Shown here piece after piece: positions 5,614 through 20,908 of a stretch of 64,000 nucleotides of DNA. Positions within the stretch are counted from its first letter, which is position 1; each line of letters opens with the position of its first letter. The position numbers and the translations under genes are program-made. Under the pieces are notes generated by a model that saw only the letters and a list, made by a program, of their open reading frames with translations, had not been told where the DNA came from and searched no databases. The stretch is from Actinomycetes bacterium (GTDB taxonomy: Bacteria > Actinomycetota > Acidimicrobiia > Acidimicrobiales > RAAP-2): the NCBI GenBank assembly GCA_021806045.1, contig JAJZDI010000007.1, forward strand, positions 42,803 to 106,802. Reading direction: 5' to 3'.

Positions 5614-6225
5614 ATGACGCCCGGCCACTCCCACGATCAACACGGCACCGGAGCTGACCCCTGCCCCGACCCCGGTGGCGACGATCGCGCCGGCGCCAAG
5701 ACTGGCGACCACGAGCTGAGCGTGCAGGAGCGCCTCTACCCCACGTTGACCTGCTTCGGCTGCGGCCACGCCAACCCCAAGGGGCTCAAGCTCCGCAGCT
5801 ACGAGGCCCCCACCTACAGCGCGGACGGCGCGGTCACCGGTCAGTTCATGCCGTGGCCCGAGCACGACAACGGCGTCGGGTTCCTGAACGGCGGGATCAT
5901 CGCCACCCTCCTCGACTGCCACAGCGCAGCCGCGGTGGTGCTGGAGGCGAGGCGCCAGGGGTGGGAGGCACTCGGCGGTGCACCGTTGGCCTTCGTCACG
6001 GCCGCCATCGACGTGCGCTACCTGCGCCCGTCGCCCCTCCACGAACCGGTCGAGCTGTGGGCTGCGGTGTCGCGGGCCACCGGGTCCGAGATGACCGTCG
6101 GCGTCGAGCTGCGCTTCGAGGAGAAGACGCGTGCGGCGGCCACGGCAACCTGGCGCCGGTGGCGACCGCGACCCGGACCGGGTCCGGGCGGGACGCCGCC
6201 TCCGGGAGCGCACGGCGCCGGTTGA
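5614..6225 (+). CDS. PaaI/hotdog-fold thioesterase
   Basis: CFGCG zinc-ribbon-like start is followed by GFLNGGIIATLLDCHSAAAV, typical of PaaI-family thioesterases. Confidence 0.7.
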   Translation: MTPGHSHDQHGTGADPCPDPGGDDRAGAKTGDHELSVQERLYPTLTCFGCGHANPKGLKLRSYEAPTYSADGAVTGQFMPWPEHDNGVGFLNGGIIATLLDCHSAAAVVLEARRQGWEALGGAPLAFVTAAIDVRYLRPSPLHEPVELWAAVSRATGSEMTVGVELRFEEKTRAAATATWRRWRPRPGPGPGGTPPPGAHGAG

Positions 6226-6254
6226 CCGCCTGCTCGCCCGCCGGCGGTGGCGGG

Positions 6255-6815
6255 TCACTCGCCGGTCGCTGCGCGGCCCACCTCGGCACCGGCCAGGAAC
6301 GCCTCGATCTCGGCACGGCTGCGCAGGCGCACGAAGGTGAGATGGGCGCACGACGGCGCCGCCATCGCCTCCTCCAAACGTTGCCGGCGCTCGTCGAACG
6401 TGGTCCACGCCCACCGCACGACGGACCGTTCCGGGTCCCACCGCAGCAGACCGAGGACGGGCTCCCGGTTCCCGTTCCACAGTTCCTCACGGCGAAGGGC
6501 GCGCCGGAGGGTGCGCCACACCACCTGGCGCATGACCACGGCACGCGGTAGGTCGAGCCACACCACGGTGTCGGCGCGTGCCCAGACGGGGCCCTCGCCC
6601 ACCACCGCCCGGTAGTTCCCGTCGGCGACCCAGCCGGCAACCGACGTCGCGTCGTCGACGGCGGCGAGGAACGCGTTGGCGTCGGCCGGCTGCCAGCCGG
6701 GCCCGTGGAACAGTGCGTCGAGCTCGACGTGGGGGACGCCGAGCCGCCCGGCCAGCCTGCGGGCCACCGTGGTCTTCCCGGAGCCGGAGGTGCCCACCAC
6801 CGAGATGCGCCGCAC
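6255..6815 (-). CDS. AAA/adenylate-kinase-like P-loop ATPase (topology-modulation-protein-like)
   Basis: VRRISVVGTSGSGKTTVARRLA Walker A lies at the N-terminus. I chose the GTG at 6815 because the longer ATG (6926) would overlap the divergent gene. Confidence 0.7.
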   Translation of the reverse strand: MRRISVVGTSGSGKTTVARRLAGRLGVPHVELDALFHGPGWQPADANAFLAAVDDATSVAGWVADGNYRAVVGEGPVWARADTVVWLDLPRAVVMRQVVWRTLRRALRREELWNGNREPVLGLLRWDPERSVVRWAWTTFDERRQRLEEAMAAPSCAHLTFVRLRSRAEIEAFLAGAEVGRAATGE

Positions 6816-6942
6816 GCGACCATCATGCCGTTCGGGCTGCCGGTCGGGCTGCCGGACTACCGGGTAGGCGGGTGCCGGGCGCCGCCCGTGCCGTCCGGCC
6901 ACTACGGTGCGTGGCCATGGCGCCATCTGCCGGCCGCCGCCG

Positions 6943-9507
6943 ATGACCACCCATCCCCCCGCGAGCGATTCCGAGCGCGTCGCCGAGGGTGCCCCCGGGC
7001 CCGGCCCGAACAGCCCGAACAGCTCCGAGGGCGCGAGCGACGACCGGCGGGCGCTCCTCCGGGCCGCCCTCGACGCCCCCGACGAGTACCCCGCCGACCG
7101 GTTCTCCGGGCGCGGCATCGTCATCTGCGCCGGCGGGGCCCGCCTCATCACCGGCGCCTGGGTGACGATCAACGTCTTGCGCCGCACCCTCGGGTGCACC
7201 CTCCCCATCCAGGTGTGGCACCTGGGGACCGCCGAGCTGGGGCCGTTCGAACGGACCCTCTTCGAGGACCTGGGGGTGGAGGTCGTCGACGCGGCCGAAG
7301 TACGGCGGACCCACCCGGTCCGCCTCCTCGGGGGCTGGGAGCTCAAGCCCTACGCGCTGGCCCACTGCCGCTTCGCCGAGGTCCTCCTCCTCGACGCCGA
7401 CAACGTCCCCGCAGCCGACCCGACGCCCCTCTTCGACGCCTGGCAGCTGGACGAGGGGGGCGGTGCCGCCTTCTGGCCCGACGTCGAGCGCCTCACCGAG
7501 GCCAGCCCCATCTGGGACCTGGTCGGCCTCCCCTACCGGCCCGTCACCTCGTTCGAGACGGGCCAGGTCCTCCTACGCAAGGCGGACGTGTGGCACCCGC
7601 TGATGGTGGCCCTGCACCTGAACGCCCACTCCGACCTCTACTACCGGTACCTCAACGGGGACAAGGACACCTTCCTCTTCGCCTGGCTGCTCACCGGGCG
7701 CCGCTGGGCCATGCCCGGCACGCCCCCCCAGGTCCTCTCCCACACCGTCTACCAGCACGACTTCGAGGGACGGGTGACCTTCCAGCACCGGACCGGCGCC
7801 AAGTGGGTGCTGCGCGGCGACAACCGCGCCGAGCCCGGGTTCGCCCTCGAGGCCGAGTGCCTGGCCTACGTGCGTGAGCTCCGCGCCCTGTGGTCCGGGC
7901 GCATGGTCCGCATCCCCGAACGGTCCCCGGCCGCGCAGGACGCCGAACGTGTCCTGGCCACGACCCGGTGGTTCAGCTACGAGCGCCTCGGCGCCGACAC
8001 CCGGCTCCTCGAGCTCCGCAACGGCCACCGGGTCGGCCGGGGCTTCAGCCCGCACGAGCGTGCCTGGTATGTGGAGGATGGAACGGACGCCGGACCCGAT
8101 GAGCCTGATGGACCTGCTGGCGCCGACCCTGGCGGACCGGCCGGACCGCCGGCCGCGCTCCGGCTCGTCCTCCTCGGCGACGACAGCGTCACCTGCCGCC
8201 TCACCCCCGGCGACGACGGCACCTGGCGGGGAACCTGGGAGCACACACCTGGGTTCGAGGTGGAGCTCACCCCCGTGCACGAGGAAGCTGGCGTCGCTGG
8301 CGTCAATGGCAGCGCCGTTGGCACCGGCGGCGCGGTCGACATCGCCACCGGGAACGTCCCCGGCGCCAGCGGTCCCGTCCCCGGCGCACCGATGGAGGCA
8401 CCGACCCCGGTCGGCCTCGACACCGACCAGGTCCGCGGCCTGCTGGCCCACCTGTCGGCCGGCGGGCGCACCGGGGCCGAGCGTGACGCCATGGTCACCA
8501 CACTGGCCACCCTCGCCGGCGCCTTCCCCGGGCTCACCGCCCGGCTACGCCACGAGCTCACCCTGTGGGAGGCGAGAGGCGACGAGCTGGTGTGCGACGC
8601 CATCAGGGCCGCCATCGACGAGGCGGACCGGCAGGACGCCCGGGCCGGTACCCCGTCACTGCACGGGCGGCGCAACCCGGGGGCACGGCCCGAGGGGTCC
8701 CGGCCCGAGTGGCGCTACGAGCCCCTGCCCTCGCCCCCGGCGGCCACCGATCCCCGGGTGCTGGTGCTCACCCCGGTGAAGGACGCCGAAGAACACCTCG
8801 ACCGCTACTTCGAGCTGCTCGGCCGGCTCGACTTCCCGCCGGACCGCCTGTCGCTGGGCATCCTCGAAGGTGACAGCACCGATGGCACCTGGGCCGCCCT
8901 GACCGCCCGTCAGGGCGAACTGCGCCGCCGGTACCGCCGGGTGACGCTCCTCCGGCGGGACTTCGGGTTCCGGCTGCCGCCCGGCGTCCCCCGCTGGAAC
9001 CACGCCTTCCAGCTGGCCCGCCGGACGGTCCTGGCCCGGGCCAGGAACCACCTCCTCGTCGGTGCCCTGGGCGACGAGGACTGGGTCCTGTGGCTCGACG
9101 TGGACGTGTGCGACTACCCCCCGACCGTCCTCCGCGACCTGCTCGCCGCCGGCCGCGACATCGTCCAGCCCCACTGCGTGGTGGAGTACGGCGGGCCCAC
9201 GTTCGACTGGAACGCCTGGCGGGAGCACGGTCAGGTGCGGATGGACCAGCTGCGGGGCGGCCCCGACCTGATCCGCCTGGACGCCGTGGGCGGGACCATG
9301 CTCCTGGTGCGGGCGGACGCCCACCGCAACGGGCTCGTCTTCCCCCCCATGCTCTACGGCGGTGGGAGCCGGTGGGCGCGCGACCCCCACCCCGTGTTCC
9401 GTGCTCCGGGCGAGGTCGAGACGGAGGGCCTCGGGATCATGGCCAAGGACATGGGCTACGAGTGCTGGGGCATGCCCAACCTCGAGATCGTCCACGCCGA
9501 CCGGTGA
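6943..9507 (+). CDS. Bifunctional glycosyltransferase: GT71-like (Mnn1/Mnn2-type) N-domain fused to GT62-like (Mnn9/Anp1-type) C-domain
   Basis: The N-domain (~7108-7830) has GIVICAGG...[21 protein letters not shown] and GDKDTF. The C-domain (~8754-9504) has [45 protein letters not shown] and [26 protein letters not shown]. No signal peptide or TM segment is present. Confidence 0.75.
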   Translation: [854 protein letters not shown]

Positions 9508-9520
9508 CCGCCCCGGGCGC

Positions 9521-9568
9521 CCCGTCACCGGCCCGGACCGGACCCCGGTGACCGGACCGGACCGGACC
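9521..9568 (+). repeat. 2 x 24-bp tandem repeat in the spacer before the GT4 gene
   Basis: CCCGTCACCGGCCCGGACCGGACC is followed by CCGGTGACCGGACCGGACCGGACC, with a partial third unit that contains the GTG start at 9572. Confidence 0.7.
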
Positions 9569-9571
9569 GCG

Positions 9572-11017
9572 GTGAGCGGCTCCCGCCTCCTCTTCGTCAC
9601 CCCCGAGCCGCCCTCGGCCACCGGCGGGGGCCTGGCCATGCGGGCCGGCTCCGTCCTCGGCGCCCTGGCCGGTGCCGGGTGGGAGGTGCACGTCCTCGTC
9701 GTGCCGGTCCACGGGGACCGCCCCGGCGGCGGTGGGCCCCTGGTGACCCGGTTCGCGGCCGCCTACGACGTGCTCGACCTCGACGCGCTGGCTCCGGAGA
9801 GCCGCCGGCAGGCCGCCCTCGACGTGCTCGGTGACCCGGCCCTACGCCTGGCGCTCACCGCCACCTCCCCCCGACCGGCACCGTGCCGCCAGCTCGGTGG
9901 GGCCGTGGTCCGGGCCGTGACCGACCGTGCACTGGGCATGGGGCGGGAGGCAGGCGTCTCGTTCGACGCCGTCCACGTGCTGCGCCTGTACCTGGCACCG
10001 GTGCTCGACGCCCTGCTGGCCCGGCCCGACCGGCCGCAGATCACCCTGGACGTGGACGAGGACGACGCCTCCGTGGCCGGGCAGCTCCACGCGCTCGGGC
10101 GGGCGGGCGCCCGTGGCGGCCTCGTGCCCGCCGACCTGCCGGACCCGGGTGAGGACGCCGGCGACGCTCCCGCCTACGCCCCCGCCTACGAGCGCCTGCA
10201 GCGCTGGTACCTGCCCCGGGTGGACCGGGTGGCGGTGGCCAGCGCCGACGAGGCGGGCCGTCTCGAGGCCCGGTCCGGACTGGCCACCGGCACGATCGTG
10301 GTGGTGCCGAACGAGGTGCCGGCCACGGGTACGAGCACGGGTACGAGCACGGGTACGAGCACGGGTACGAGCACGGGTACGAGCACGGGTACGAGCACGG
10401 GTACGGGCACGGGCACGGGTACGGGCACGGCACCGGTCACCACCGACCTGCTGCTGGTGGGGAACTTCTCGTGGCCACCCAATGCCGACGCGGCGGTGGT
10501 CCTGTGCGACGCCGTCCGGCCCGCCCTGGCCGATGCCCTCGGCCGGCCGGTGACGGTGGCACTGGTGGGGAAGGACCCCCCGCCGGAGGTGCGTCGGCTC
10601 GGCGGGACCGCCGGGGTGACGGTGACCGGGTTCGTGGGCGACGTCGGCCCCTACTACGCTGCCGCCGGTGTGGCAGCCGTTCCCATGCGTGCCGGCGGTG
10701 GGTCCCGCATCAAGATCCTCGAGGCCATGGACCGCGGCGTCCCGGTGGTGACCACCGAGGCCGGAGCCGCCGGCCTCGACGCCGGCTCGACGCCACCGCC
10801 CGTCGTGGTGGCCCGCTCCGTCGAGGCCTTCGTCGACGGGTGCCGGCTGGTGCTGGACGATGCCGCCTGGCGCGCCCGCACGGTCCGGGCCGCCCGGCGC
10901 TGGGTGCGGGACCACCACGGTCCGCCGGCGGTGGCCACGGCCATGGGCGCCCTCGTCGGTGCCCCCGGGCGCAGGCCCCCCCGTCCTGCGGCGCGCAGAG
11001 GCAGCGATGACGGATGA
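9572..11017 (+). CDS. GT4-family (GT-B) glycosyltransferase with low-complexity (GTST)n hinge insertion
   Basis: LLFVTPEP...GGGLAMRA N-terminus. The C-domain has LLLVGNFSWPPN ... GGSRIKILEAMDRGVPVVTT (E-x7-E region). The GTG start is at 9572. Confidence 0.8.
   Translation: MSGSRLLFVTPEPPSATGGGLAMRAGSVLGALAGAGWEVHVLVVPVHGDRPGGGGPLVTRFAAAYDVLDLDALAPESRRQAALDVLGDPALRLALTATSPRPAPCRQLGGAVVRAVTDRALGMGREAGVSFDAVHVLRLYLAPVLDALLARPDRPQITLDVDEDDASVAGQLHALGRAGARGGLVPADLPDPGEDAGDAPAYAPAYERLQRWYLPRVDRVAVASADEAGRLEARSGLATGTIVVVPNEVPATGTSTGTSTGTSTGTSTGTSTGTSTGTGTGTGTGTAPVTTDLLLVGNFSWPPNADAAVVLCDAVRPALADALGRPVTVALVGKDPPPEVRRLGGTAGVTVTGFVGDVGPYYAAAGVAAVPMRAGGGSRIKILEAMDRGVPVVTTEAGAAGLDAGSTPPPVVVARSVEAFVDGCRLVLDDAAWRARTVRAARRWVRDHHGPPAVATAMGALVGAPGRRPPRPAARRGSDDG
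10325..10432 (+). repeat. In-frame 12-bp tandem repeat (GGTACGAGCACG x6, then GGTACGGGCACG-type variants)
   Basis: Six perfect units and then degenerate units are read directly from the sequence. They encode TGTSTGTSTGTSTGTSTGTSTGTSTGTGTGTGTGT between the two Rossmann halves of the GT4. Confidence 0.95.
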
Positions 11018-11342
11018 CGCCGCCGGCCTCGAGCGCCGGCCACGCAAGGTCCCCGACCTCGAGATCAGCCAGATCGTCGACGGCTACGTCGTGTACGACC
11101 CGGCCACCGACCGCATCCACTACCTGAACCACACGGCGTCCGTGGTCCTCGAACTGTGCGACGGCGAGCTGCCGGTCGACCGCATCGTCGACCTCGTCCA
11201 GGGCGCGTGGGACCTTCCCGAGCGGCCCGTCGACGAGGTCGAGGCGTGCGTGGCCCGGTTCGAGCGGGTGGGGCTGGTGGTCGACGCGGCACCACCGGAC
11301 CATGCCGATGACGGGCAGGCGGTGCCGGGCGACCCCGGATGA
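11007..11342 (+). CDS. PqqD-family (RRE-type) peptide chaperone
   Basis: 111 aa. The segment ISQIVDGYVVYDPATDRIHYLNHTASVVLELCDGELPVDRIVDLV...DEVEACVARFERVGLV matches the PqqD pattern. The gene overlaps the GT4 stop by 11 nt. Confidence 0.75.
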   Translation: MTDDAAGLERRPRKVPDLEISQIVDGYVVYDPATDRIHYLNHTASVVLELCDGELPVDRIVDLVQGAWDLPERPVDEVEACVARFERVGLVVDAAPPDHADDGQAVPGDPG

Positions 11343-12310
11343 CGGGGGTGGGGACGGCGGACCACCAGCCGATCGAGGTGCAGGTGCTGGGGGCGGCCAC
11401 CCGGCTGACCCTCGACCCATCGGTGGCCGGCGCTCTCCATCCCACCCTCGCCCTTGCCGCCCAGCGCGCACGCCAACCCGAGGCGGACCCGGCGTGGGAG
11501 GAGCTGCGTGCTGTTGCCGCCGCTCCCGGCGGCGGGGGAACGCTCCCGCTCCCGCTGTTCGCCCTGGAGCGGGAAGACGGCACCCGTCTCGCCAGCGGCG
11601 ACTCCATGACGCTGTTGAACGGCCTCCTGGCCGACGTCGAGGCCCGGGCCGCCGCCCGGGAGGGCGCCAGCGTGGTCGTGCGGGCCGGCTGCGTCCGCAT
11701 CGGCGACCGGCGTGTCGTCCTCACCGGCTGGGGGGCGCCGGGGGTGACCACCGTGCTGCTGGCCCTCGGGCGCCGTGGCCACGTGCTCGAGACCGACAGC
11801 CAGCTGTTCCTGGCTGTGGGTGGGCTCAGTGCGGTGACGCGTCGGTTCCTGGTACGGCGCCACGCCGTCGACGTCCTCGACTGGCTGGACCCGGTGCTGG
11901 CGGCGACACCGTGGCTCCAGAACCGGGCCGGCGAGACGGTCCACACCGTGGACCCCACCGCGTTCGGCATGGACTGGGAGGCGGGGCGGGGTCCCGTCGA
12001 CGCCGTCGTCGAACTGGAGGGCAACCACGGCGGCTCCAACCGGCTCCGACCCCGGTCCCGGTGGGAGGCGGTCCGGGCCCTCGCCGACCGGGCCCGCGAT
12101 CCGGCGGGTGGGCCCGGCGGGTCCCCGGCCCAGTGGCTCGGCCAGCTGTGCTCGGTGGTCGATCGGGCCCAGTGCCTGCGGCTCACGGTGGGCGATGCCG
12201 ACGGTGCGGCGACCCTCCTGGAGGAGGCGCTCTCGCAGGATCCGGCCGCGCCGACCGGCATGCACGGGCGGATCTTCGGTAGTGTGCACCAGATCGACCA
12301 AGGGGGGTAG
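11339..12310 (+). CDS. HPr-kinase-related (HprK-like) protein with degenerate P-loop
   Basis: VVVRAGCVRIGDRRVVLTGWGAPGVTTVLLALGRRGHVLETD is colinear with the HprK-like ...hAs.v...g..vll.G.sG.GKST.al.L...G..l.sD pattern. It has an ATGA overlap with the PqqD gene. Confidence 0.6.
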   Translation: MTGVGTADHQPIEVQVLGAATRLTLDPSVAGALHPTLALAAQRARQPEADPAWEELRAVAAAPGGGGTLPLPLFALEREDGTRLASGDSMTLLNGLLADVEARAAAREGASVVVRAGCVRIGDRRVVLTGWGAPGVTTVLLALGRRGHVLETDSQLFLAVGGLSAVTRRFLVRRHAVDVLDWLDPVLAATPWLQNRAGETVHTVDPTAFGMDWEAGRGPVDAVVELEGNHGGSNRLRPRSRWEAVRALADRARDPAGGPGGSPAQWLGQLCSVVDRAQCLRLTVGDADGAATLLEEALSQDPAAPTGMHGRIFGSVHQIDQGG

Positions 12311-12586
12311 GTGTCCGACGACGAGCTCGACAGGGAACTGCTCAAGCGGGTCCCGATGGACCGGAGGGAATTCGTCCGGCGGGCGGTGATCGGGGCCGCG
12401 TTCGCCGTGCCCGTGGTGGCATCGTTCGCTGCCGGCGAGCTGGCGGGCGGCCACCGGGCGTCGGCCACCCCCGAGCCTGCGTTCGCATCGAACCAGGAGG
12501 TCCCCCCGCTCGACATGCCCATCCTCGGTCATCGGGGCTACATCCCCTACGCCTACCACCCCTACCAGGTCGGCCTGGATGACTGA
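12311..12586 (+). CDS. Small secreted protein with twin-arginine signal peptide
   Basis: The GTG start follows the upstream TAG directly, with AAGGGGGG 5 nt upstream. The Tat motif is DRREFVRRAVIGAAFAVPVVASFA. The mature part (~50 aa) ends in a His/Tyr/Pro-rich tail. Confidence 0.6.
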   Translation: MSDDELDRELLKRVPMDRREFVRRAVIGAAFAVPVVASFAAGELAGGHRASATPEPAFASNQEVPPLDMPILGHRGYIPYAYHPYQVGLDD

Positions 12587-13799
12587 TGCGGACGGCTCGG
12601 TGCTGCTCAGCGCGGCACTGATCGTCCGCGACGAGGCCGAGCACCTTCCCGGCTGCCTGGCATCGTTGCACGAGCTCGTCGACGAGATCGTCGTCGTCGA
12701 CACCGGCTCCACCGACGGGTCCGCGGGCATCGCCGCGTCGGCCGGCGCACGCGTGTCCGACGTGCCCTGGAGCGGCGACTTCTCCGCCGCCCGCAACGCG
12801 GCGCTGGACCGGTGCCGGGGCACGTGGATCCTCTACATCGACGCCGACGAGCGGGTGCGCGCCGGCACGGCCGCCGCCACCCGGCAGGTGCTCGAGACGA
12901 GCGACGCGCTGGGCCTGCTGGTCGGCTTCACCCCGGCGACCGGGTTCACCTGGTACCGGGAGTGCCGCCTGTTCCGCAACGACCCCGCCATCCGGTTCGA
13001 GCGCCCCATCCACGAGCGGGTGGTGCCGGCCATCGAACGTCTCGGCCGCGCCCGACCGGGCACCGCCGCCACCGGGCCGGGCAGCGTGCCTGGCACCGGT
13101 CTCACCGGCGGGGCCGTGTGGGGGAGGGCCCCGCTCCACCTCGACCACCTCGGCTACGACAACGACCGGCCGGCCCGGCACCGCCGTGACCTCCCCCTGC
13201 TGGAGGGCGAGCTGGCCCGCCGGCCAGGCGACGTGTCGACCTGGTACCGCCTGGGCGTGGCCCGGGCCGGGCTCGGCGACGACCGCGGCGCCGAGGAGGC
13301 ATGGCGGCAGGGCGCCCGGGCGTCGGCGGACGAGGGCGACACCCACCCGCTGGGCGGCATGTGCCTGGTCGAGCTGGTGCGCCTGTGCGTGGAGCGGGGG
13401 GAGGACCCCGCCGGCCTGCTGGCCGGCGCCACCGCCCGGTTCCCCCGCAACCGGCTGCTCGTCTGGCAACGGGCCCGCCACCAGTTGGCGACCGGCGACC
13501 CGCGGCGTGCGGCCGACCTGTTCGCCGGCCTGGCCGCCACCGATCTGGAGGCCCTTGCCGGCGAGGGACTCGCCTACGACGCCCGCCTGTTCGGGTCGTG
13601 GGCGCACGACGGAGCCGGTGCGGCCGCGTTCGCGCTGGGCGACTACGAGGCGGCTGCCGCCGCGTACGCGGCGGCGGAGGCGGCCGAGCCGGGGGTGCTC
13701 GGCTACCGGGTGAAGCGGGTGGCCGCGGCCCGCCGGGCCGGGGCGGTCCGGTCGCACCCGGGGAGTACAGCGATGGTTCCGACGAGGAGGGCAGGCTGA
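12579..13799 (+). CDS. GT2 (GT-A) glycosyltransferase fused to a C-terminal TPR-like helical domain
   Basis: LSAALIVRDEAEHLPGCLAS...VVVDTGSTDGS...ILYIDADE. The Ala/Leu-rich TPR-like C-terminal half follows. The gene overlaps the upstream gene by 8 nt and the downstream gene by 1 nt. Confidence 0.8.
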   Translation: MTDADGSVLLSAALIVRDEAEHLPGCLASLHELVDEIVVVDTGSTDGSAGIAASAGARVSDVPWSGDFSAARNAALDRCRGTWILYIDADERVRAGTAAATRQVLETSDALGLLVGFTPATGFTWYRECRLFRNDPAIRFERPIHERVVPAIERLGRARPGTAATGPGSVPGTGLTGGAVWGRAPLHLDHLGYDNDRPARHRRDLPLLEGELARRPGDVSTWYRLGVARAGLGDDRGAEEAWRQGARASADEGDTHPLGGMCLVELVRLCVERGEDPAGLLAGATARFPRNRLLVWQRARHQLATGDPRRAADLFAGLAATDLEALAGEGLAYDARLFGSWAHDGAGAAAFALGDYEAAAAAYAAAEAAEPGVLGYRVKRVAAARRAGAVRSHPGSTAMVPTRRAG

Positions 13800-16700
13800 T
13801 GGGTTGGGGTACCGGAGCAGTCCGGGAGGGCGGCACCAGGCCGCCGTTCCTGCGCCGGGTGGTGGTCGCCGCCGTGGCCGGTTCGGTCGTCGGCGCCGCC
13901 GTCTTCGCCACCGTGGCCACCACGTCACACGGTCCGTCGGCGACCTCAGCGGGGTCGGGGGCGCCGTCGGGCGCAGCCCACGCCACCACGGCGAGCGTGA
14001 CGACCAGGCTGGCCACCCTCCCGCTGGCCTTCGCCCAGGGCACCACGGCGACGCCCAGCTACGTGGCCGGGGCCCCCGGCTACGACGTACAGGTCACCCC
14101 GGACCAGGTCGACCTGGCCGTCATCCGGGGAACCGGGCAGGGTGGGACGGGCACGCCGGCGCCGCGGACGGGGACCGCCCCTTCAGCGCCCACCGGTACC
14201 GCCACCAGCCAGGTCGGCCTCGACCTGGTCGGGGCCGACCCCGCCGCCCGGTTGTCCACCCAGGGCGCCCTGCCCGGGCACGTGAACATGTTCGTGGGAC
14301 CGCGCCAGTCGTGGCGCTCCGACCTGCCCACCTACTCCACCGTGGTGGCCCACGACGCCTGGCCGGGCGTCGACGTGCGCTACGCCGGTAGCAGCGGCAA
14401 CCTCGAGTACTCCCTGACGGTGGCACCCGGAGCCGACCCGTCGATCGCCCGCATGCGGCTCACCGGGGTGACCGGCCTGCACGTCGACAGCCGGGGTGAC
14501 CTGGTCGGCCAGTCGGCCGCGGGGCCGGTGACCGAGCGGTCCCTCAGCGCCTGGCAGGTGGTCGGTGGCCACCGACATGCGGTGCCGGCCTCCTACCGCC
14601 TGCAGGGCACGACCGTCTCGTTCCAGGTGGGCTCCTACGACCGGAGCCGGCCGCTCATCATCGACCCGACGGTGGTGACGGGCTACGCCACCTACCTGTC
14701 GGGCGGCCCGCTGTCCGAGGTCCTCGGCCTGGCCACCGACCAGGCCGGGAACACCTTCGCCGTCGGGTTCATCGGTGCCCCCGGGTTGGCCCCGACCTAC
14801 GGAGGCGGGCTCACCGACGCCTTCGTCACCGAGCTCGACCCGACCGGCACCCACGCCCTCTTCTCCACCTACCTCGGCGGCATCGGCGAGGACGTGGCCA
14901 CCGCCGTCGCCCTCGGCCCATCGGGGTCGATCTACGTGGCCGGCTACACCGACTCCCCCGACTTCCCCATCGTCGGCGGCACGCGCAAAACCAACGACAA
15001 CAACACGGTCTTCGGCGCCGAGAACGACGGCTTCCTCACCGTGCTCGCCGCCGGCGGGAGCAGCATCGACGCCTCCACCCTCATCGGCGGGTCGGGTGAG
15101 GACGAGATCGAGGCCCTCGCCGTCGACGCCGCCGGCAACGCCCACATCGCCGGGCTCACCACGTGGAACGACTTCCCCGGCATGGGCGGCACGGCGGGCA
15201 CGTACCAGGACTTCAACACGGCCTACCTCTACACGAGGGGCGGTTCTTATGCCAAGAACTCGTTCGCCTTCGTGGCCACCGTGGACGACAGCGCCAGCGG
15301 GCTCGTCCTCGGCCCGGTCACCAACCTCGGCAATGAGTTGCACATCGAGGTTGACGCCCTCACCCTCGACAGTTCGGGTGACGCCTTCGTGGCTGGAGGA
15401 TCCTCCGCCACGCTGGCGACGGTCGGCGGGGCCTACTCGGGGAGCACGAACAACAACTACAACAAGGACGGCGGGTTCGTGGCCGAGGTGGCACCGACCG
15501 GCAGCGTGACCTGGCTGGCGTGGATGGGCCCGGCCATGCAGCTCTACGGCATCACCCTCGACGCGGCCGGCAACGTCGACGTGGTCGGGGCGGCCTACCC
15601 CGGCCTGGCCACCACCACGGGCGTCGTCGATCCGACGGACACCACAGGCGGGCCCCAGGCCATGGCCGCCTCGCTCTCACCGAACGGGGCCACCCTCCGG
15701 TGGGCCACCTACCTCGGTGGCACCAACGGCACCTCCGAGGCCGACGCCGTCGTCGTGGCACCGGACGGCTCCCTGCTGGTGGCGGGGGGGACGGCGTCCA
15801 CCAGCGGTGTGGCCACCGCCGGGGCGCCGCAGGTCACCTACGGCGGAGGATCCTCCGACGCGTTCCTCGTCGACCTGGCACCGGACGCCACCTCCGTCAA
15901 TTGGGGCACCTACCTCGGAGGTCCGGGCGCCGACTGGGCCATGTCGATGAGCCCCGTTCCCGGCGGGGTGGCAATCGGCGGACTGGCCTCGCCGCCGTCC
16001 TTCCCGGTCACCGCGGGGAGCCTGCAGACGACCCCCTCCGGATCCCAGTACGGCTTCGTCGCCGACGTGCTGGTGGCGCCCACGGTGACCTCGGTGTCGC
16101 CGGCCTCCGGGCCGGCCACCGGTGGCACCACCGTCACCGTGAACGGAACCGGGTTCACCGGTGCCACCGCCGTGCACGTGGGTGCGGCTGCCGCTTCCTT
16201 CACGGTGGTGTCGGACACGCAGCTGACCGCCACCGTGCCGCCCGGTTCGATCGGGACCGTGGACGTGACCGTCACCGGCCCCGGCGGCACCAGCGCCACC
16301 GCCACGGGGGACCACTTCACCTACGTGGCCAGCGGCTACCGCCTGGTCGCCGCCGACGGGGGGGTGTTCGCCTTCGGGAGCGACCGCTTCGCCGGGTCGT
16401 GCCCAGCGGCGGGCTCGGTGTGCAGTGGCGTGTCCGACATCGTCGGCACGGCCGCCACCCCCGACGGCACGGGCTACTGGCTGGTGGGGGCGGACGGCGC
16501 CGTCTACCCGTTCGGCACCGCCGCCTCCTACGGGTCGATGGCCGGGCACCACCTCGACAAGCCGATGGTCGGCATGGCCGCCACCCCGGACGGTAAGGGC
16601 TACTGGCTGGTGGCCGCCGACGGCGGGGTGTTCGCCTTCGGTGACGCCGCCTACGCCGGGTCGATGGGCGGCACCCACCTGGACGCGCCGGTGGTGGGCA

Positions 16701-17122
16701 TGGTCGCCACTCCCGGTGGCACGGGCTACTGGCTGGTGGGGGCCGACGGCGGGGTGTTCGCCTTCGGGACCGCCCGCTATGCCGGATCGTGCCCGGCGCC
16801 GGGCTCGGTGTGCAGTGGCGTGTCCGACATCGTCGGCGCGGCCGCCGCCCCCGTTGGCACGGGCTACTGGCTGGTGGGAGCGGACGGCGCCGTCTACCCG
16901 TTCGGCACCGCCGCCTCCTACGGATCGATGGCCGGGCACCACCTCGACAAGCCGATGGTCGGCATGGCCGCCACCCCCGACGGCAAGGGCTACTGGCTGG
17001 TGGCCGCCGACGGCGGGGTGTTCGCCTTCGGCGACGCCACCTTCGCCGGGTCGGAAGGCAGCACCCACCTGGACGCGCCGGTGGTGGGTGTGGCCACGCC
17101 GGCGGTCCGGCTCGCCGGCTGA
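13799..17122 (+). CDS. Large (1107-aa) cell-surface protein: signal/anchor, SBBP-type beta-propeller repeats, IPT/TIG domain, C-terminal GYWLV-DGGVF-FG repeat propeller
   Basis: N-terminal hydrophobic segment VVVAAVAGSVVGAAVFATVA. Motifs of the type DAFV(T/A)(E/K)L...STYLGG recur. The IPT-like segment is PTVTSVSPASGPATGGTTVTVNGTGF. About 9 C-terminal ~40-aa repeats follow. ATG 13799 overlaps the upstream TGA. Confidence 0.8.
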   Translation: MGWGTGAVREGGTRPPFLRRVVVAAVAGSVVGAAVFATVATTSHGPSATSAGSGAPSGAAHATTASVTTRLATLPLAFAQGTTATPSYVAGAPGYDVQVTPDQVDLAVIRGTGQGGTGTPAPRTGTAPSAPTGTATSQVGLDLVGADPAARLSTQGALPGHVNMFVGPRQSWRSDLPTYSTVVAHDAWPGVDVRYAGSSGNLEYSLTVAPGADPSIARMRLTGVTGLHVDSRGDLVGQSAAGPVTERSLSAWQVVGGHRHAVPASYRLQGTTVSFQVGSYDRSRPLIIDPTVVTGYATYLSGGPLSEVLGLATDQAGNTFAVGFIGAPGLAPTYGGGLTDAFVTELDPTGTHALFSTYLGGIGEDVATAVALGPSGSIYVAGYTDSPDFPIVGGTRKTNDNNTVFGAENDGFLTVLAAGGSSIDASTLIGGSGEDEIEALAVDAAGNAHIAGLTTWNDFPGMGGTAGTYQDFNTAYLYTRGGSYAKNSFAFVATVDDSASGLVLGPVTNLGNELHIEVDALTLDSSGDAFVAGGSSATLATVGGAYSGSTNNNYNKDGGFVAEVAPTGSVTWLAWMGPAMQLYGITLDAAGNVDVVGAAYPGLATTTGVVDPTDTTGGPQAMAASLSPNGATLRWATYLGGTNGTSEADAVVVAPDGSLLVAGGTASTSGVATAGAPQVTYGGGSSDAFLVDLAPDATSVNWGTYLGGPGADWAMSMSPVPGGVAIGGLASPPSFPVTAGSLQTTPSGSQYGFVADVLVAPTVTSVSPASGPATGGTTVTVNGTGFTGATAVHVGAAAASFTVVSDTQLTATVPPGSIGTVDVTVTGPGGTSATATGDHFTYVASGYRLVAADGGVFAFGSDRFAGSCPAAGSVCSGVSDIVGTAATPDGTGYWLVGADGAVYPFGTAASYGSMAGHHLDKPMVGMAATPDGKGYWLVAADGGVFAFGDAAYAGSMGGTHLDAPVVGMVATPGGTGYWLVGADGGVFAFGTARYAGSCPAPGSVCSGVSDIVGAAAAPVGTGYWLVGADGAVYPFGTAASYGSMAGHHLDKPMVGMAATPDGKGYWLVAADGGVFAFGDATFAGSEGSTHLDAPVVGVATPAVRLAG
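16391..17038 (+). repeat. Near-identical ~258-bp direct duplication (16391-16648 and 16781-17038) inside the surface-protein gene
   Basis: The two copies differ at only about a dozen positions by eye. The period is 390 bp, equal to 130 codons. Confidence 0.9.
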
Positions 17123-17181
17123 GCCCAGCGGGTCCGGGAACGTGCCGCCACCGACCGGACCGGCTCCCCGCCACGGGCACC

Positions 17182-18069
17182 ATGACCGCAGTGACAGGTG
17201 AACCATGGGCTGTGGACGCTGCCGCGCCCATCCGACCGTCGGACAGGACCGGTGCGCCGTTCCTCGAGCCCGTCGTCGACGTGGACACCCACGTGGGACC
17301 GCTCCTGCTCCCGGCCGGCGACGGCATCATCACCCGCGCCCTGCAGGACTACGGGCTGTGGGAGAGCCAGGAGACCGCCTACCTCATCATGACGCTCCTG
17401 CCCGGCCAGACGTTCGTGGACATCGGGGCCCACGTCGGCTACTTCAGCGTCCTCGCCTCCAAGCGGGTCGGCCCCACCGGGAGGGTGATCGCCTTCGAGC
17501 CCGAGGCACGCAACCTGGACCTGTTGGAGCGGAACCTCTGGCGCAACGGGTGCGACAACGCGGCGGTCGTGCCGTACGCGTGCTCCGACCGCCCGCAGGA
17601 CCTGTCCCTCGTCCTCATCGAGGAGAACCGAGGGGCACACCACCTGGTGCCGGCGGGGCAGGGGGACGTGCCCGTCCGGTGCGTCCGTCCCGACGACGTC
17701 CTGTCCGGAACCGTCGACGTGGTGAAGATCGACGCCCAGGGCTACGACCACGAGGTGGTCGCCGGGCTGCGTCGGACGTGGACCGCCTGCCCGGACCTGG
17801 AGATGCTGGTGGAGCTGTCGTACACCGAGCTCGACCGGCGAGGCATCGAACCCCTGGACGTGCTCACCGGCTACGAGGAGCTCGGGTTCGAGCTGGCCAT
17901 CTTCGACGCCGGCGGCAACCTCACGGTCATGCCGGCCGAGGCGGTCGACGTCGTGTGCCGTGCCCGCAAGCAGTCGGACTTCACGGTCATCCTGCGTCGG
18001 CGGGAGCGCGAGGTCCGTGGGGAGGATGACGTACGGCACGCGCCCTCGCCCGCTGGGGGCGACCGGTGA
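17182..18069 (+). CDS. FkbM-family SAM-dependent methyltransferase
   Basis: FVDIGAHVGYFS SAM-binding motif, then VIAFEPEARN and VDVVKIDAQGYDHEV, typical of FkbM-family enzymes. Confidence 0.8.
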   Translation: MTAVTGEPWAVDAAAPIRPSDRTGAPFLEPVVDVDTHVGPLLLPAGDGIITRALQDYGLWESQETAYLIMTLLPGQTFVDIGAHVGYFSVLASKRVGPTGRVIAFEPEARNLDLLERNLWRNGCDNAAVVPYACSDRPQDLSLVLIEENRGAHHLVPAGQGDVPVRCVRPDDVLSGTVDVVKIDAQGYDHEVVAGLRRTWTACPDLEMLVELSYTELDRRGIEPLDVLTGYEELGFELAIFDAGGNLTVMPAEAVDVVCRARKQSDFTVILRRREREVRGEDDVRHAPSPAGGDR

Positions 18070-19007
18070 CCGGAGCCACCGGGGCCGGGCCGGGAGACCA
18101 CACCCAGCTGGCGTCGTACCGGCGATGCGTCGAGCGCATCGAGCGCGCCTGGGACGGGTTCGCCCTCCGGCGCAGGGAACGCCTCCGCCAGGGCCTCTTC
18201 GACGCCCCGGTCGAGAAGGTGGCCGAGAACATCCTGGAGGACCTCCTCACCGGGGTGCTCGACTGGGAGCTGGCCGACGTCAACCTCCAGGTGGGACGGG
18301 CCGACATCGTCCTGTCCGAACTGGGGATCAAGCGACTGGTGCTCGAGGTCAAGCGACCAGGCGCGCTGGCGTGGCACCGGGCGGCCGTCGACAAGGCGCT
18401 GGATCAGGCGCTCAGGTACGCGGCGGCGCAGAAGGTGGGGGCGGTGGCGGTGAGCGACGGGCGGATGCTGTACGCGGCGGACGTGGCCAACGGCGGGCTC
18501 CGGGACCGGCTCTTCGTGTCGCTCGATGATGCCGATCCGCCCCACGAGCTGTGGTGGCTGTCCGTGCACGGCATCTACCGCCCGTGCCCGGGACCGTCCA
18601 CACCGCTGCCGTCGGCGGCGCCGGAGCGACCGGTCGAGGAAGCTGGCGCCGAGGTCGCGGGCGAGCTCCTCCACACCACGTACCACCTGCCGGCCCGGTG
18701 CTTCGCCTACGTGGGGCGGGCCGACGCGCCGAGCACGTGGAAGCTCCCCTACCGCACCGCCGACGGCGCACCCGACGTGAAGCGGCTTCCCAAGGCCATC
18801 CAGGCCATCCTCAGCAACTACCGGGGCGCCAAGGTGAGCATCCCCCGCGAGGCGGTGCCCGACGTCCTCGTGCGCCTGTGCCAGACGGCGGCGTCGCTCG
18901 GGAAGCTCCCCTGCCAGGATGCGGCCACCGCTCCCGCCTATACCGAGGCCCACCAGGCTCTCGACCAGCTCGGGCGCCTGGCCTCGGTCGGCTGCTGCCG
19001 TTCCTGA
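18066..19007 (+). CDS. Hypothetical protein with N-terminal PD-(D/E)XK-like motif and conserved C-terminal W-K-L-P domain
   Basis: GRADIVLSE...KRLVLEVKRPG fits D...E-x-K nuclease-fold spacing. The C-terminus reads STWKLPYRTADGAPDVKRLPKAIQAILSNYRG. It has a GTGA overlap with the FkbM gene. Confidence 0.5.
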   Translation: MTGATGAGPGDHTQLASYRRCVERIERAWDGFALRRRERLRQGLFDAPVEKVAENILEDLLTGVLDWELADVNLQVGRADIVLSELGIKRLVLEVKRPGALAWHRAAVDKALDQALRYAAAQKVGAVAVSDGRMLYAADVANGGLRDRLFVSLDDADPPHELWWLSVHGIYRPCPGPSTPLPSAAPERPVEEAGAEVAGELLHTTYHLPARCFAYVGRADAPSTWKLPYRTADGAPDVKRLPKAIQAILSNYRGAKVSIPREAVPDVLVRLCQTAASLGKLPCQDAATAPAYTEAHQALDQLGRLASVGCCRS

Positions 19008-19108
19008 CCGGCGCGGCCGTCACGAGGGCCGGCCGGCGACATGCCGGTGGAGCCACCGTGCTGTCAGTACCATCTCGGCCAGGTGGAATCGACGGGAGGG
19101 GCGGGATC

Positions 19109-20908
19109 GTGAGCGACCAATCGCAGGGCGCCGGGTGGTGGCAGGCGTCTGACGGCAAGTGGTACCCGCCCGAGCTGCACCCAGGGGCCGCGGCGGTTCC
19201 CCCTCAGGTGCAGGCACCGGCGCCCACACAGGCACCAGCACAGACACCACCACCCTTGCAGACGCCAGGGCCTGTGGCCGCGCCGCCATCGCCAGGGTGG
19301 TGGCAGGCGTCTGACGGCAACTGGTACCCGCCCGAGCTGCACCCGAGTGCGCCGGCCGGGCTGCAGGTGCCCTCGACACCCCCGTCCGGATTCGCCACCG
19401 GTCCTGCCGGACCCGCCGGTCCGTTCGGGTCCGGTCCGTTCGCTCCGTTCGGGTCCGGTCCGGCCGGCACGATGCTTCCCCCGGCCGTTGCAGACGCCGG
19501 ACGGTCACGTGGCCGCCGGAACCGGACGATCCTCGTCGCGGCGATCGTCGTCCTCCTGATCGCAGGAGGTGCGGGGGTGGCGGTCGCCGACCACTCGTCA
19601 CCCACGTCGGCGCCGACGACGACGGCGGCGTCGGCGCCGACGGCGGCGGGGCCCGCCATGGGGACGCTCGACGTCCTCGGCGGCCCCGTGGCCGGCGGCG
19701 GGCACGCCATCGTGATCGACGTGACATCCGACCTCCACATGGAGCTGAGTGCCGTCGACCCCAGGAGCTCGCGGGTCGCGTGGCAGCAGCCGTTCTCCGC
19801 GTCGGAGATCACCCCCGGCGAGCCGTTCACCCCGACCGTCATCGGCAACGTCGTGATCGACCTCGCCCCGACGGGCGCGCTCACCGATCCGGCGGTGTCG
19901 ATCGAAGGGATCGACGCCACCACCGGTGTCGTACGCTGGACCTACGCAACGCCGGGCATCGCACTGGACGCACCCGTTCCCTGTGCCGGCGCCGGGACCT
20001 TCTGTCTCTCGTGGGTGACAGCTGCATCGACGTCGAGCAGCCTCATCGAGGTGAGCGCCACCACCGGGTCGTTGGTCCGCACGATCCCGAACATCGAACG
20101 CCAGCTCGGCACCGACGTCTACCAGACGGGGTCCACCACGCCCACGGTCATCCAGCTCGGCTCTCAGGGCCAGGTCGTCTGGCAGAAGGGGACGGCGTCC
20201 ATCTTCGGCTCCACCAACGACGTCCCCGACCAGGGGTGGAACATCGACCGCTTCGGGAGCATGAACGTCGGAAGCCTCGGTTCCGCACCGACGGGCAACG
20301 TGGAGGACCTCGGGTCGTCGACGACGACGGGGTTCTCCATCGCCACCGGAACGCCACGGTGGACGGACCCGGGGCTCTACAACTGCATGGGGCCGCTCGA
20401 GTTCCTGTCGACGCCGGTGATCTGCCGCCTGTCCGGCACGGTGACGGCGCCGTCCACCCCCAACGGCACACCGACGTTCTCCGGGCTCGCCCTGCAGATC
20501 GAGGGGTTCGACACGCAGACGGGGACGATCACCTGGAGCCAGCCCGACACGAACATCCAACCCATGGTGGGCTCCGGCGCCATCCCGTTCCTCGACGGCG
20601 ACCACATCGTCGTGCAACAGCACGGTGGCTTCGTGGTCCTCGACACGCAGACCGGCACGGTCGCCCCGGTACGCACCGGCGAGGTCTTCTGGTGCGCGAC
20701 CACGCCTACGGTCAACGTGGCCGTGCCGGCCGGCTCGGGCTATCCGGGCAACCGGACCGCCACTGATCGCTTCTCCGGCTGCACGGCCGACGGCACGCCC
20801 AGCACGGCTACCCACCCGGCCAACCAGCCGAGCGCCGTCGGGGTCACCATCAACGGGATCTTCCTCTGGCCGGGCCAGCACGGCCTGAGCTCCGAACGCG
20901 CGTCCTGA
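19109..20908 (+). CDS. Membrane-anchored protein: 2 x DUF2510-like (GWWQASDGxWYPPE) N-terminal repeats, one TM segment, extracytoplasmic beta-propeller-like domain
   Basis: GTG at 19109 with GGGAGGG 9 nt upstream. The TM segment is ILVAAIVVLLIAGGAGVAV. The C-terminal ~420 aa are Thr/Gly/Val-rich and propeller-like. Confidence 0.65.
   Translation: MSDQSQGAGWWQASDGKWYPPELHPGAAAVPPQVQAPAPTQAPAQTPPPLQTPGPVAAPPSPGWWQASDGNWYPPELHPSAPAGLQVPSTPPSGFATGPAGPAGPFGSGPFAPFGSGPAGTMLPPAVADAGRSRGRRNRTILVAAIVVLLIAGGAGVAVADHSSPTSAPTTTAASAPTAAGPAMGTLDVLGGPVAGGGHAIVIDVTSDLHMELSAVDPRSSRVAWQQPFSASEITPGEPFTPTVIGNVVIDLAPTGALTDPAVSIEGIDATTGVVRWTYATPGIALDAPVPCAGAGTFCLSWVTAASTSSSLIEVSATTGSLVRTIPNIERQLGTDVYQTGSTTPTVIQLGSQGQVVWQKGTASIFGSTNDVPDQGWNIDRFGSMNVGSLGSAPTGNVEDLGSSTTTGFSIATGTPRWTDPGLYNCMGPLEFLSTPVICRLSGTVTAPSTPNGTPTFSGLALQIEGFDTQTGTITWSQPDTNIQPMVGSGAIPFLDGDHIVVQQHGGFVVLDTQTGTVAPVRTGEVFWCATTPTVNVAVPAGSGYPGNRTATDRFSGCTADGTPSTATHPANQPSAVGVTINGIFLWPGQHGLSSERAS

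Follow-up and report, generated by a model that had tools for sequence, protein, structure and literature searches.

The 64-kb stretch of DNA analyzed here (positions 42,803 to 106,802 of contig JAJZDI010000007.1 in assembly GCA_021806045.1 of an Actinomycetes bacterium), in the following called the window, contains a cassette of four tightly linked genes on the plus strand. All coordinates given are positions of the whole window. The cassette comprises a gene for a 111-aa PqqD-family protein (11007..11342), that is, a recognition element (RRE) for peptides made by the ribosome and modified after translation (RiPPs), a gene for a 323-aa protein with a predicted HprK/PEPCK fold (PEPCK, phosphoenolpyruvate carboxykinase) and a degenerate P-loop (ORF2; 11339..12310), a small open reading frame (ORF) of 91 aa, and a gene for a soluble 406-aa glycosyltransferase of the SunS/ThuS/GmaR type, in which a GT2 (GT-A) domain is combined with a TPR/helical part (GT2-TPR; 12579..13799). 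The small ORF consists of a leader part resembling a signal for twin-arginine translocation (Tat; residues 1-52, 12311..12466) and a core part (residues 53-91, TPEPAFASNQEVPPLDMPILGHRGYIPYAYHPYQVGLDD, followed by the stop codon; 12467..12586).

In the original prediction, the four genes were described as translationally coupled, and all junctions given there proved to be exact. The stop codon of the upstream GT4 glycosyltransferase gene (ending at 11017) overlaps the ATG of the PqqD gene (11007) by 11 nt, the PqqD gene ends and ORF2 begins within one ATGA at 11339-11342, and the GTG of the small ORF (12311), preceded by AAGGGGGG, directly follows the TAG of ORF2 (ending at 12310). The stop codon of the small ORF (12584-12586) and the ATG of GT2-TPR (12579) result in an overlap of 8 nt. 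A further overlap, missing from the original prediction, joins the GT2-TPR stop to the start of the next gene (TGATG at 13797-13801). The G + C content of the region is about 75%, and the codon-position G + C marks a single plus-strand gene series around the cassette. The G + C fraction of third codon positions (GC3) is 0.89-0.93 and that of second positions (GC2) 0.47-0.59 in all four cassette genes, with values of 0.89 and 0.47 for the small ORF. Ratios of nonsynonymous to synonymous substitutions (dN/dS) of 0.09-0.41 in comparison with relatives reveal purifying selection on all four genes. The strongest constraint was found for the small ORF (0.09-0.26); the values are 0.17-0.33 for the PqqD gene and 0.31-0.40 for ORF2.

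In the clade of the window, defined by ORF2 homologues of 73-100% identity (loci L001-L007 and L010), the small ORF is always present with a length of 91 aa. Identities to the peptide of the window are 87-92%, with a mean of 85% per column, and its conservation exceeds that of ORF2. The loci of two distant ORF2 relatives (27-32% identity) contain an ORF that shares only the first ~45 residues, the remainder being unrelated, and the same leader was found on unrelated C-termini in L008, L009, L011-L030 and L033-L103. The conservation in syntenic relatives that a precursor peptide would call for was thereby found throughout the clade, and for the leader also in distant loci.

The leader consensus is composed of an acidic n-region, the motif [RK]R-x-F-[VIL]-[RK]-[RK], the pattern G-[TAS]-A-F-A-V-P-[VI]-[VI]-x-S-F as h-region and a short c-region, which often has a basic residue and then an AxA-type site. 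The corresponding elements in the window are the acidic n-region SDDELDRELLKRV, the twin-arginine motif D17-RREFVRR-24 (12362-12382), 18 uncharged residues (A25-G42) containing F31-AVPVV-36 (12401-12418), and a c-region with R49 and A50-S-A52 (12458-12466). The pattern [RK]R.[FL][VILM].[RK] fits 87 of the 98 unique leaders, and an AxA-type site, searched with a loose pattern, follows the hydrophobic region in 95 of them. Judged by motif inspection only, the window leader matches the textbook layout of a twin-arginine signal. Furthermore, FAVPVV fits the RRE-binding motif [Y/W]xxPx[LVIFA] (PMC13381572), with Phe as the aromatic residue. The core part in the window contains S60-N-Q-E63 (12488-12499), which is S-N-Q-S in L001, and a Tyr/His/Pro-rich tail (G73-D91) that is invariant in the clade except for I/V at position 78. 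The 91-aa product contains no Cys.

The assignment of the ORF at 11007 to PqqD was confirmed with the Pfam model PF05402, which is matched with 31.8 bits (cut-off 23.4) by residues 27-91 over profile positions 2-67 of 67. The protein stays below the cut-off of every specialised NCBIfam PqqD model, reaching 23.7 vs. 35 bits for TIGR04353, and the homologue from L023 scores 27.1 bits with this model. A PDB search with the PqqD profile returned noise only, and no second copy of the leader, the PqqD gene or the HprK-like gene was found elsewhere in the 64-kb window.

ORF2 has no Pfam match, its best score with TIGR04352 (HprK_rel_A) is 11.9 bits (E = 0.09) vs. a cut-off of 200, and a single-sequence PDB search returned nothing at E ≤ 10. 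A word-indexed homologue search gave five close relatives only. The profile built from these five was compared with 1.84 billion representative sequences and retrieved 269 proteins, mostly of 270-295 aa. Of 39 scanned relatives, 29 match TIGR04352 at E < 1e-3, and others match HprK_rel_B, ScmC or HPr(Ser) kinase. A structure of ORF2 was modelled with AlphaFold2 on the alignment of the relatives (mean predicted local distance difference test score, pLDDT, 89.4; predicted TM-score 0.86). The best PDB matches of the model in a Foldseek search are ATP-dependent phosphoenolpyruvate carboxykinases (1e-5) and HprK/P (1kkl, 4e-5), which share a single fold, with a target-normalised TM-score of ~0.5. 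According to this model, ORF2 has the fold of the PEPCK/HprK C-terminal domain, which agrees with the family matches and upholds the description of the ORF at 11339 as HprK-like.

The P-loop of ORF2 reads G130-W-G-A-P-G-V136-T-T, compared with the family consensus GxxGxGKT[TS], and the Walker A pattern GxxGxGK[ST] with its catalytic Lys is not found. The window and its five close relatives all have Val in place of the Walker A Lys and Ala in place of one P-loop Gly. The neighbouring two clades, L008 and L009, have lost the Lys as well (HSGVTT, GSGTTT). Walker A is intact (GxGK[ST]T) in most relatives, including deltaproteobacterial, acidimicrobial and other homologues. Due to the loss of this Lys, ORF2 is probably non-catalytic here and survives as a structural partner in the clade of the window, and phosphorylation of the peptide is unlikely in the window for the same reason. 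In most lineages, the HprK-like protein is a candidate for an active Ser kinase. The kinase role originally suggested for this protein can thus be kept as regards its fold and family, but hardly as regards its activity in the window.

GT2-TPR was assigned to the GT2 family (PF00535, 6.5e-15) with TPR repeats by Pfam. Its closest PDB sequence match is the glycosyltransferase domain of GmaR (8.5e-25), which is a flagellin GlcNAc transferase (PMC9638930), and SunS is matched with 1.3e-10. The AlphaFold2 model (pLDDT 90.6) was aligned by Foldseek along about 405 columns to SunS (7msn, 7.4e-17) and ThuS (7msk, 7e-15), whereas TarP, the family that follows, is matched with an E-value nine orders of magnitude worse (7e-8). 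D88-A-D90-E91 and H145-E146 are invariant, the intact DxD motif being conserved without exception in 30 homologues. The best NCBIfam match is TIGR04195, the SunS peptide S-glycosyltransferase, with 42.5 bits vs. a cut-off of 350. In total, 987 related clusters were found at E ≤ 1e-10 among 8000 candidates scored. By its model, which fits over the full length, GT2-TPR is structurally a peptide glycosyltransferase of the SunS/ThuS type, in line with the glycocin-like architecture originally noted for it. A hydropathy scan detected no clear membrane-spanning segment in the glycosyltransferases, PqqD or ORF2. The only hydropathy window above the threshold (GT4 residues 98-116, 1.66) is read as a buried strand of the Rossmann fold. 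A function as polyprenol-phosphate glycosyltransferase was rejected, as GT2-TPR is soluble and SunS-like.

The recurrence of the cassette was examined with a search for the leader only, using the pattern [ILV]G[TAS][AG]FAVP[VI][VI], one genome per GTDB species and confirmation by tblastn. The genome scan resulted in 23 loci from Actinomycetes, Solirubrobacterales, Acidimicrobiia, Thermodesulfobacteriota/Deltaproteobacteria and one gammaproteobacterial metagenome-assembled genome (MAG), and a scan of metagenomes added 68 further loci, 91 in all. Two of the loci, L031 and L032, look like false positives. Partner genes were searched among all six-frame ORFs of the loci with hidden Markov models (HMMs) for PqqD, the HprK-like protein and full-length GT2-TPR. 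For 25 loci, at least 2.5 kb of sequence are available on each side of the leader ORF, and all 25 contain at least one partner gene within 6 kb. A PqqD gene is present in 23, a GT2-TPR gene in 22 and an HprK-like gene in 17 of them; PqqD and the glycosyltransferase are found together in 20 and all three partners in 14. The usual gene order is PqqD, HprK-like, leader ORF, GT2-TPR and matches that of the window. Loci from Solirubrobacterales have PqqD, GT2-TPR and the leader protein without an HprK-like gene. As a search based on the leader alone returns the partner genes, the recurrence exceeds chance.

The reverse test, starting from GT2-TPR homologues, revealed a locus of Actinospongicola halichondriae (L033) and loci of two MAGs (L102 and L103), in which a leader-bearing ORF lies immediately upstream of the glycosyltransferase gene and a PqqD gene nearby. 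The leaders carry variants outside the search pattern, namely FVVP (L033), YAAP within YAAPFV (L102) and FVTP (L103). A. halichondriae is a cultured acidimicrobial isolate, whose locus (L033, 7340-13421; accession CP171622.1) consists of genes for GT4, PqqD, an HprK-like protein with intact Walker A, the leader peptide (102 aa, ending in ...TTTTQPNQTSTTLQTNQ), GT2-TPR, NTP_transf_5 and a methyltransferase. When the leader profile was compared with a protein database, only six short proteins were found, which exposed a radical-SAM/SPASM context. On the contig of JGI 3300041967 that carries P0156, a radical SAM gene with SPASM is located beside a 57-aa leader peptide, a 687-aa GT2-TPR, PqqD and DUF6311, and a B12-binding radical SAM gene lies directly upstream of the PqqD gene in L023 (7230-8756).

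A total of 98 distinct leader ORFs share the conserved N-terminus, and their C-termini are hypervariable. Among the cores, there are poly-Thr/Ser tracts (e.g., ...TTTTTTTTTTTED), arrays of NQ[ST], N-x-[ST] and CN[QS] with about nine PNQT-like repeats in L025, very short tails with NQTSP at their end, cores from Deltaproteobacteria that end in PP[VIA]SP.R or are Gly/Ser-rich, and Tyr/His-rich cores that occur in the window, L034 and L035. Whole domains also occur as cargo: He_PIG and DUF11 were detected at Pfam cut-offs, L008 has weaker Ig-like matches below the cut-off, and the core of L103 looks like a beta-helix by eye, with no Pfam match. Thr accounts for 16% and Ser for 10% of the residues in 76 non-redundant cores. 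The dipeptide NQ occurs 54 times in these cores compared with 12.0 ± 3.1 in within-sequence shuffles, a 4.5-fold enrichment that none of 2000 shuffles reached, and NQ[ST] occurs 23 times compared with 2.2, likewise unreached in 2000 shuffles. In several loci, leader ORFs that differ in their poly-Thr cores stand in tandem, two or three at a time (L041, 847-1952; L042, 1415-2472; L038, L049 and L059), with three tandem precursors in L041/L042, and in L056, L082 and L085 repeated units of an HprK-like gene and a leader ORF precede a single GT2-TPR gene. RiPP precursors are typically recognized by just this combination of a constant leader, diverging cores and several gene copies. Together with the reciprocal co-occurrence, these features give strong comparative support to the small ORF as the precursor, the role in which it had been predicted from its position and its twin-arginine signal.

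The NQ[ST]-array cores often end in an amphipathic GFLGFLEEIF...HKPI tail. Cores rich in NQ, N-x-S/T and Cys with a conserved amphipathic tail (e.g., GFLGFLEEIFSLLTGHPHKPI and GLLGLLEEIFELFTHSHKPI) form a subfamily, which is found in L025, L058, L067, L069, L077, L081, L092 and L093.

Two further glycosyltransferase genes are located directly upstream of the cassette. The first (6907..9507, plus strand) encodes an 866-aa soluble two-domain enzyme with an N-terminal Mannosyl_trans3 (3.7e-23) and a C-terminal Anp1 domain (3.1e-43) and no transmembrane segment, and the second is the GT4 gene (9548..11017, plus strand; Glyco_trans_1_4, 2.6e-21). The longest GT4 ORF begins with GTG at 9362 and would overlap the upstream glycosyltransferase gene by 146 nt. 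Based on the gene calls of relatives and the conserved start LLFVTPEPP, the start was placed at GTG 9548 or 9572, with 9548 being the most likely. The 866-aa gene is kept upstream of the cassette in L001, L002, L004, L006 and L010, an Anp1-type homologue adjoins the cassette in L009, L011, L013 and L014 and recurs in L102, and GT4 homologues lie directly beside the PqqD gene in L011, L013, L014, L015, L024, L025, L027, L030 and L033, an adjacency that spans Solirubrobacterales, Acidimicrobiia and other actinobacterial loci. Furthermore, two remote ORF2 relatives are fusion proteins, namely P0065 (766 aa) of Mannosyl_trans3 and P0128 (541 aa) of Anp1 with the HprK-like domain, so that the fusion partners correspond to both domains of the 866-aa protein. 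Since the flanking glycosyltransferases recur beside the cassette or, in remote relatives, form one polypeptide with the HprK-like domain, they are probably the glycan-extension part of the peptide system and not an independent polysaccharide pathway. Glycosyltransferase genes do flank the cassette, as originally predicted, but the glycan operon in which it was thought to be embedded is probably not a separate one.

The gene identities and folds, the conservation of the cassette and the architecture of conserved leader and variable core were established computationally. From these, we infer an RRE-guided cytoplasmic glycosylation of a ribosomally made peptide or protein whose leader doubles as a Tat signal, and we regard this reading as reasonably probable; what is inferred includes the recognition of the leader by PqqD, the sugar and the residue that accepts it, the dependence on Tat, the removal of the signal and the biological function. 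The substrate, made in the cytoplasm, would be the 91-aa peptide encoded at 12311-12586, with its first ~52 residues acting at once as RiPP-type leader and as twin-arginine signal peptide. PqqD would bind the leader, most likely at the aromatic-x-x-Pro-x-Val motif FAVPVV. As this motif lies inside the hydrophobic core of the signal, the binding would also mask the signal from the translocase, as the Tat chaperones TorD and DmsD do. PqqD would then present the core to GT2-TPR, which may be recruited via PqqD and its own TPR part and would attach the first sugar. The likeliest acceptor would be Ser or Thr, possibly in an S-N-Q context. O-glycosylation of Ser/Thr may be taken as the default for this type of enzyme, and the enrichment of NQ keeps Asn possible; we know of no N-glycosylating enzyme of the SunS-like family. 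The soluble GT4 and the 866-aa Mannosyl_trans3/Anp1 enzyme would extend the glycan, and the modified product, folded or bulky, would be exported via Tat, with signal peptidase I cutting after A50-S-A52. With glycosylation preceding export, Tat rather than Sec would be a sensible route.

Applied to all lineages, the proposal would define a so far unrecognised, phylogenetically wide class of ribosomal glycopeptides or glycoproteins, in which the Tat signal is the RiPP leader, the RRE acts as presenter and export gatekeeper, a SunS-like GT2-TPR initiates the glycosylation of Thr/Ser-rich or NQ[ST] cores, possibly at Asn in N-Q-T, GT4/Anp1 enzymes and, in some lineages, HprK kinases, NTP transferases or radical SAM enzymes elaborate the product, and Tat exports it. 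As a joint claim, this is put forward tentatively and falls somewhat short of being probable.

Several observations weigh against the proposed glycosylation and Tat export. When ten leaders were compared with Pfam at E ≤ 1, TAT_signal was not among the matches, although this model is short and matches weaker than about 0.1 are mostly removed by the HMMER filters; of the Tat signal in the original prediction, the motif, the h-region and the AxA site therefore stand by inspection, and the profile match is missing. The constancy of FAVP is partly circular, as it is contained in the search pattern, the independent cases being only L033, L102 and L103, and five of the 25 loci with full flanks lack one of the two, PqqD or the glycosyltransferase, within 6 kb. 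The window core is poor in Ser/Thr (T53 and S60) and has NQE instead of NQ[ST], and its invariant Tyr/His-rich tail is left unexplained by glycosylation. Finally, with some cargoes being whole domains, the system may have more in common with the glycosylation of proteins than with the making of a peptide natural product. The small ORF could also be a single-pass membrane anchor or adaptor, with a conserved cytoplasmic N-terminus and transmembrane segment at which PqqD and the soluble glycosyltransferases dock to the membrane, the acceptor being a lipid-linked glycan or another protein such as the 1107-aa protein encoded downstream of GT2-TPR. This would suit a Tat signal that no predictor has confirmed, a conservation that covers exactly the N-terminus and the hydrophobic segment with a low-complexity and variable outer part, and the coupling of the cassette to a large surface protein in the clade of the window. 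However, tandem paralogues with different C-termini (L041/L042, L049, L059) suit substrates rather than anchors, the cores show significant motif enrichment and, within the clade, strong purifying selection, and nearly all leaders have the AxA-type site, as far as the loose pattern shows. In addition, the glycosyltransferase is of the peptide/protein type of SunS, ThuS and GmaR and not a polyprenol-phosphate enzyme, and no other lineage has the 1107-aa protein. A role as anchor is considered unlikely.

Of similarly low probability is an active HprK-like kinase in the window, which would phosphorylate the precursor as in paeninodin-type lasso peptides or in linear polyphosphorylated peptides (LPPs), with glycosylation on or beside the phosphate. 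LppK polyphosphorylates a Ser of the core (PMC13381572), relatives with intact GxGK[TS]T occur in the same cassette, NTP_transf_5 in L033 recalls lasso and LPP clusters, and the fold, family and purifying selection of ORF2 are in line with such a function. These points are opposed by the lost Walker A Lys in the window, the five close relatives, L008 and L009, by the window having no NTP transferase, and by the Solirubrobacterales loci, where the HprK-like gene is missing and hence dispensable for the core process. A general Tat-linked O- or N-glycosylation of cell-surface proteins, like that of serine-rich-repeat adhesins, with the 91-aa product as a small surface glycoprotein, would account for cargoes ranging from 7-aa tails to folded domains (He_PIG, DUF11 and, below the cut-off, Ig-like in L008), for poly-Thr mucin-like cores and for the conservation of several extending glycosyltransferases. 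It largely overlaps with RRE-guided glycosylation and differs mainly in the purpose of the product, but short precursors in several copies, a discrete RRE and, in some cases, radical-SAM partners are typical of RiPP pathways. We give it little probability as well. Spurious ORFs are common in GC-rich genomes; a chance juxtaposition with a non-functional small reading frame is nevertheless refuted by its codon-position G + C, its low dN/dS and the occurrence of its leader beside the same partners across phyla, and must be regarded as extremely improbable.

Among the known systems, the LPPs are a class of linear polyphosphorylated peptides with RRE, HprK and NTP transferase (Popov et al., Nat Commun 2026, PMC13381572). 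Their conserved set consists of a SipW-like peptidase, the RRE, the HprK kinase, the NTP transferase plus an exporter resembling MsbA, and the discrete RREs of lasso and LPP clusters bind [Y/W]xxPx[LVIFA] in a hydrophobic cleft (PMC13381572). The cassette resembles LPP and paeninodin-type clusters in the discrete PqqD-type RRE beside an HprK-like protein and in the aromatic-xx-P-x-hydrophobic motif of the leader. It also resembles them in the precursors of 35-200 aa with conserved N-terminus and variable C-termini, one to three per cluster, in the location among glycosyltransferase genes or polysaccharide loci, and in NTP_transf_5 of the relative L033. In contrast, the cassette has a twin-arginine signal and an AxA site instead of a SipW-like leader peptidase and an MsbA-like exporter, its conserved enzyme, the SunS-like GT2-TPR, is outside the LPP core set, its kinase-like protein is degenerate in the window and absent in some lineages, and its hosts are Actinomycetota and Thermodesulfobacteriota, whereas LPP hosts are Bacillota. 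The precursors have the same overall architecture, and their leader motif, with Phe in FAVPVV or Tyr in YAAPFV (L102), may correspond to that of the LPPs, whose consensus is otherwise missing. As the scanned genes within 5614-23048 include no more of the LPP set than the RRE and an HprK-like protein that is degenerate, the cassette was not assigned to the LPPs. A lasso peptide cluster was dismissed as well, since neither a B2 leader peptidase nor an Asn-synthetase-like cyclase was found among the genes scanned in 5614-23048.

The likeness to glycocin clusters is based on the soluble cytoplasmic GT-A enzyme with helical/TPR part, which would be expected to modify a ribosomal peptide and for which SunS and ThuS are the best structural matches and TIGR04195 is the best NCBIfam match. 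Unlike glycocins, the window product has no Cys core, no helix-loop-helix disulfide core and no double-glycine leader, and the cassette has neither ABC transporter/peptidase nor thiol-disulfide oxidoreductase. To our knowledge, glycocin glycosyltransferases have not been reported to need an RRE. A glycocin pathway was rejected on account of the low TIGR04195 score, the missing Cys and the lack of an ABC transporter gene among the flanking genes scanned. The HPr-rel-A system (TIGR04352 with TIGR04353), to which the original prediction had pointed, shares the adjacent PqqD/HprK-like pair, and both models are among the best NCBIfam matches. However, both proteins of the cassette stay under the curated TIGRFAMs cut-offs, and even relatives with intact Walker A reach only ~40 bits with TIGR04352 (40.2 for the homologue from L023). 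Judged by these profile scores, the cassette is a sibling family of HPr-rel-A and not a member. We know of no substrate or Tat partner described for HPr-rel-A.

The hypothesised function of PqqD has a parallel in the redox enzyme maturation proteins TorD, DmsD and NapD, which are likewise small cytoplasmic proteins that bind a signal peptide. Such Tat chaperones bind the hydrophobic core of Tat signals until the cytoplasmic maturation has ended (PMC3316669, PMC3712460). The analogy would not involve homology, as they are not winged helix-turn-helix/PqqD proteins, and their maturation step is the insertion of a cofactor and not glycosylation. GmaR and its flagellin substrate are similar in the soluble glycosyltransferase with TPR/helical part and in Ser/Thr-rich substrates that are glycosylated in the cytoplasm prior to export. 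Serine-rich-repeat adhesins (GtfA/B, accessory Sec) are also glycosylated in the cytoplasm before dedicated export. The cassette differs from both in the proposed use of Tat instead of the flagellar type III secretion system or accessory Sec, in the RRE partner and in the peptide-sized hypervariable substrates.

No literature was found that describes the cassette or that connects an RRE and a leader peptide with a twin-arginine signal, the coverage of subscription journals being incomplete. The module thus still appears to be undescribed, as had been supposed, except that its RRE and HprK logic is partly published for the LPPs (PMC13381572). RRE-dependent peptide modification is known already, and the cassette is widespread, with a cultured representative. 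If the proposed reading is true, it would be the first link found between RRE-dependent peptide modification and Tat export and would account for the strong conservation of a signal peptide beside cytoplasmic enzymes. It would furthermore provide a new searchable precursor signature, RRxF[VIL][RK][RK]...G.AF.VPV[VI].SF, and widen the range of SunS-type glycosyltransferases, so far tied to a few bacteriocins of Bacillota, to about a thousand protein clusters in bacteria of soil, peat and sediment. The targets of orphan PqqD and HprK-like pairs (HPr-rel-A, ScmC/ScmD type) and the exit route of bulky peptides glycosylated in the cytoplasm would become testable, and the cultured A. halichondriae makes experiments feasible. 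Hypervariable, sometimes mucin-like cores in combination with a leader-directed glycosyltransferase are of possible interest for glyco-engineering.

Apart from the genes described, the window contains a number of neighbouring features. A 4HBT thioesterase gene is located at 5614-6225 (plus strand), upstream of the glycosyltransferases. The gene that overlaps the GT2-TPR stop (13799..17122, plus strand) encodes the 1107-aa protein, which is membrane-anchored or secreted and contains DUF7948, SBBP beta-propeller repeats and TIG according to Pfam. It has an N-terminal hydrophobic segment (residues 17-35) and is conserved only in L001-L005 and L010. Its N-terminus (PPFLRRVVVAAVAGSVV) is loosely leader-like, without F-x-x-P and without a match to the leader HMM. 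Further 3' of this gene follow a FkbM methyltransferase, an uncharacterised 313-aa protein and a PQQ_2 propeller. The 313-aa gene (18066-19007) overlaps the stop of the FkbM methyltransferase gene, and its product has no Pfam match and is conserved in L010 (8e-174). Sulfotransfer_1 genes were observed near the cassette in L001/L002 (L001, 3301-4443) and L102 (3970-4767); a sulfation of the Tyr-rich acidic tail of the core was dropped, as the window has no Sulfotransfer_1 homologue. The stretch 43099-45956 encodes a fusion of CysN and CysC (sulfate adenylyltransferase GTPase and APS kinase), followed by an ORF of 317 aa. At 2509-3747, a toxin kinase of the HipA family was identified (HipA_C, 6.9e-53, with Couple_hipA), and the 84-aa ORF directly upstream of it (2255-2509) is probably the antitoxin.

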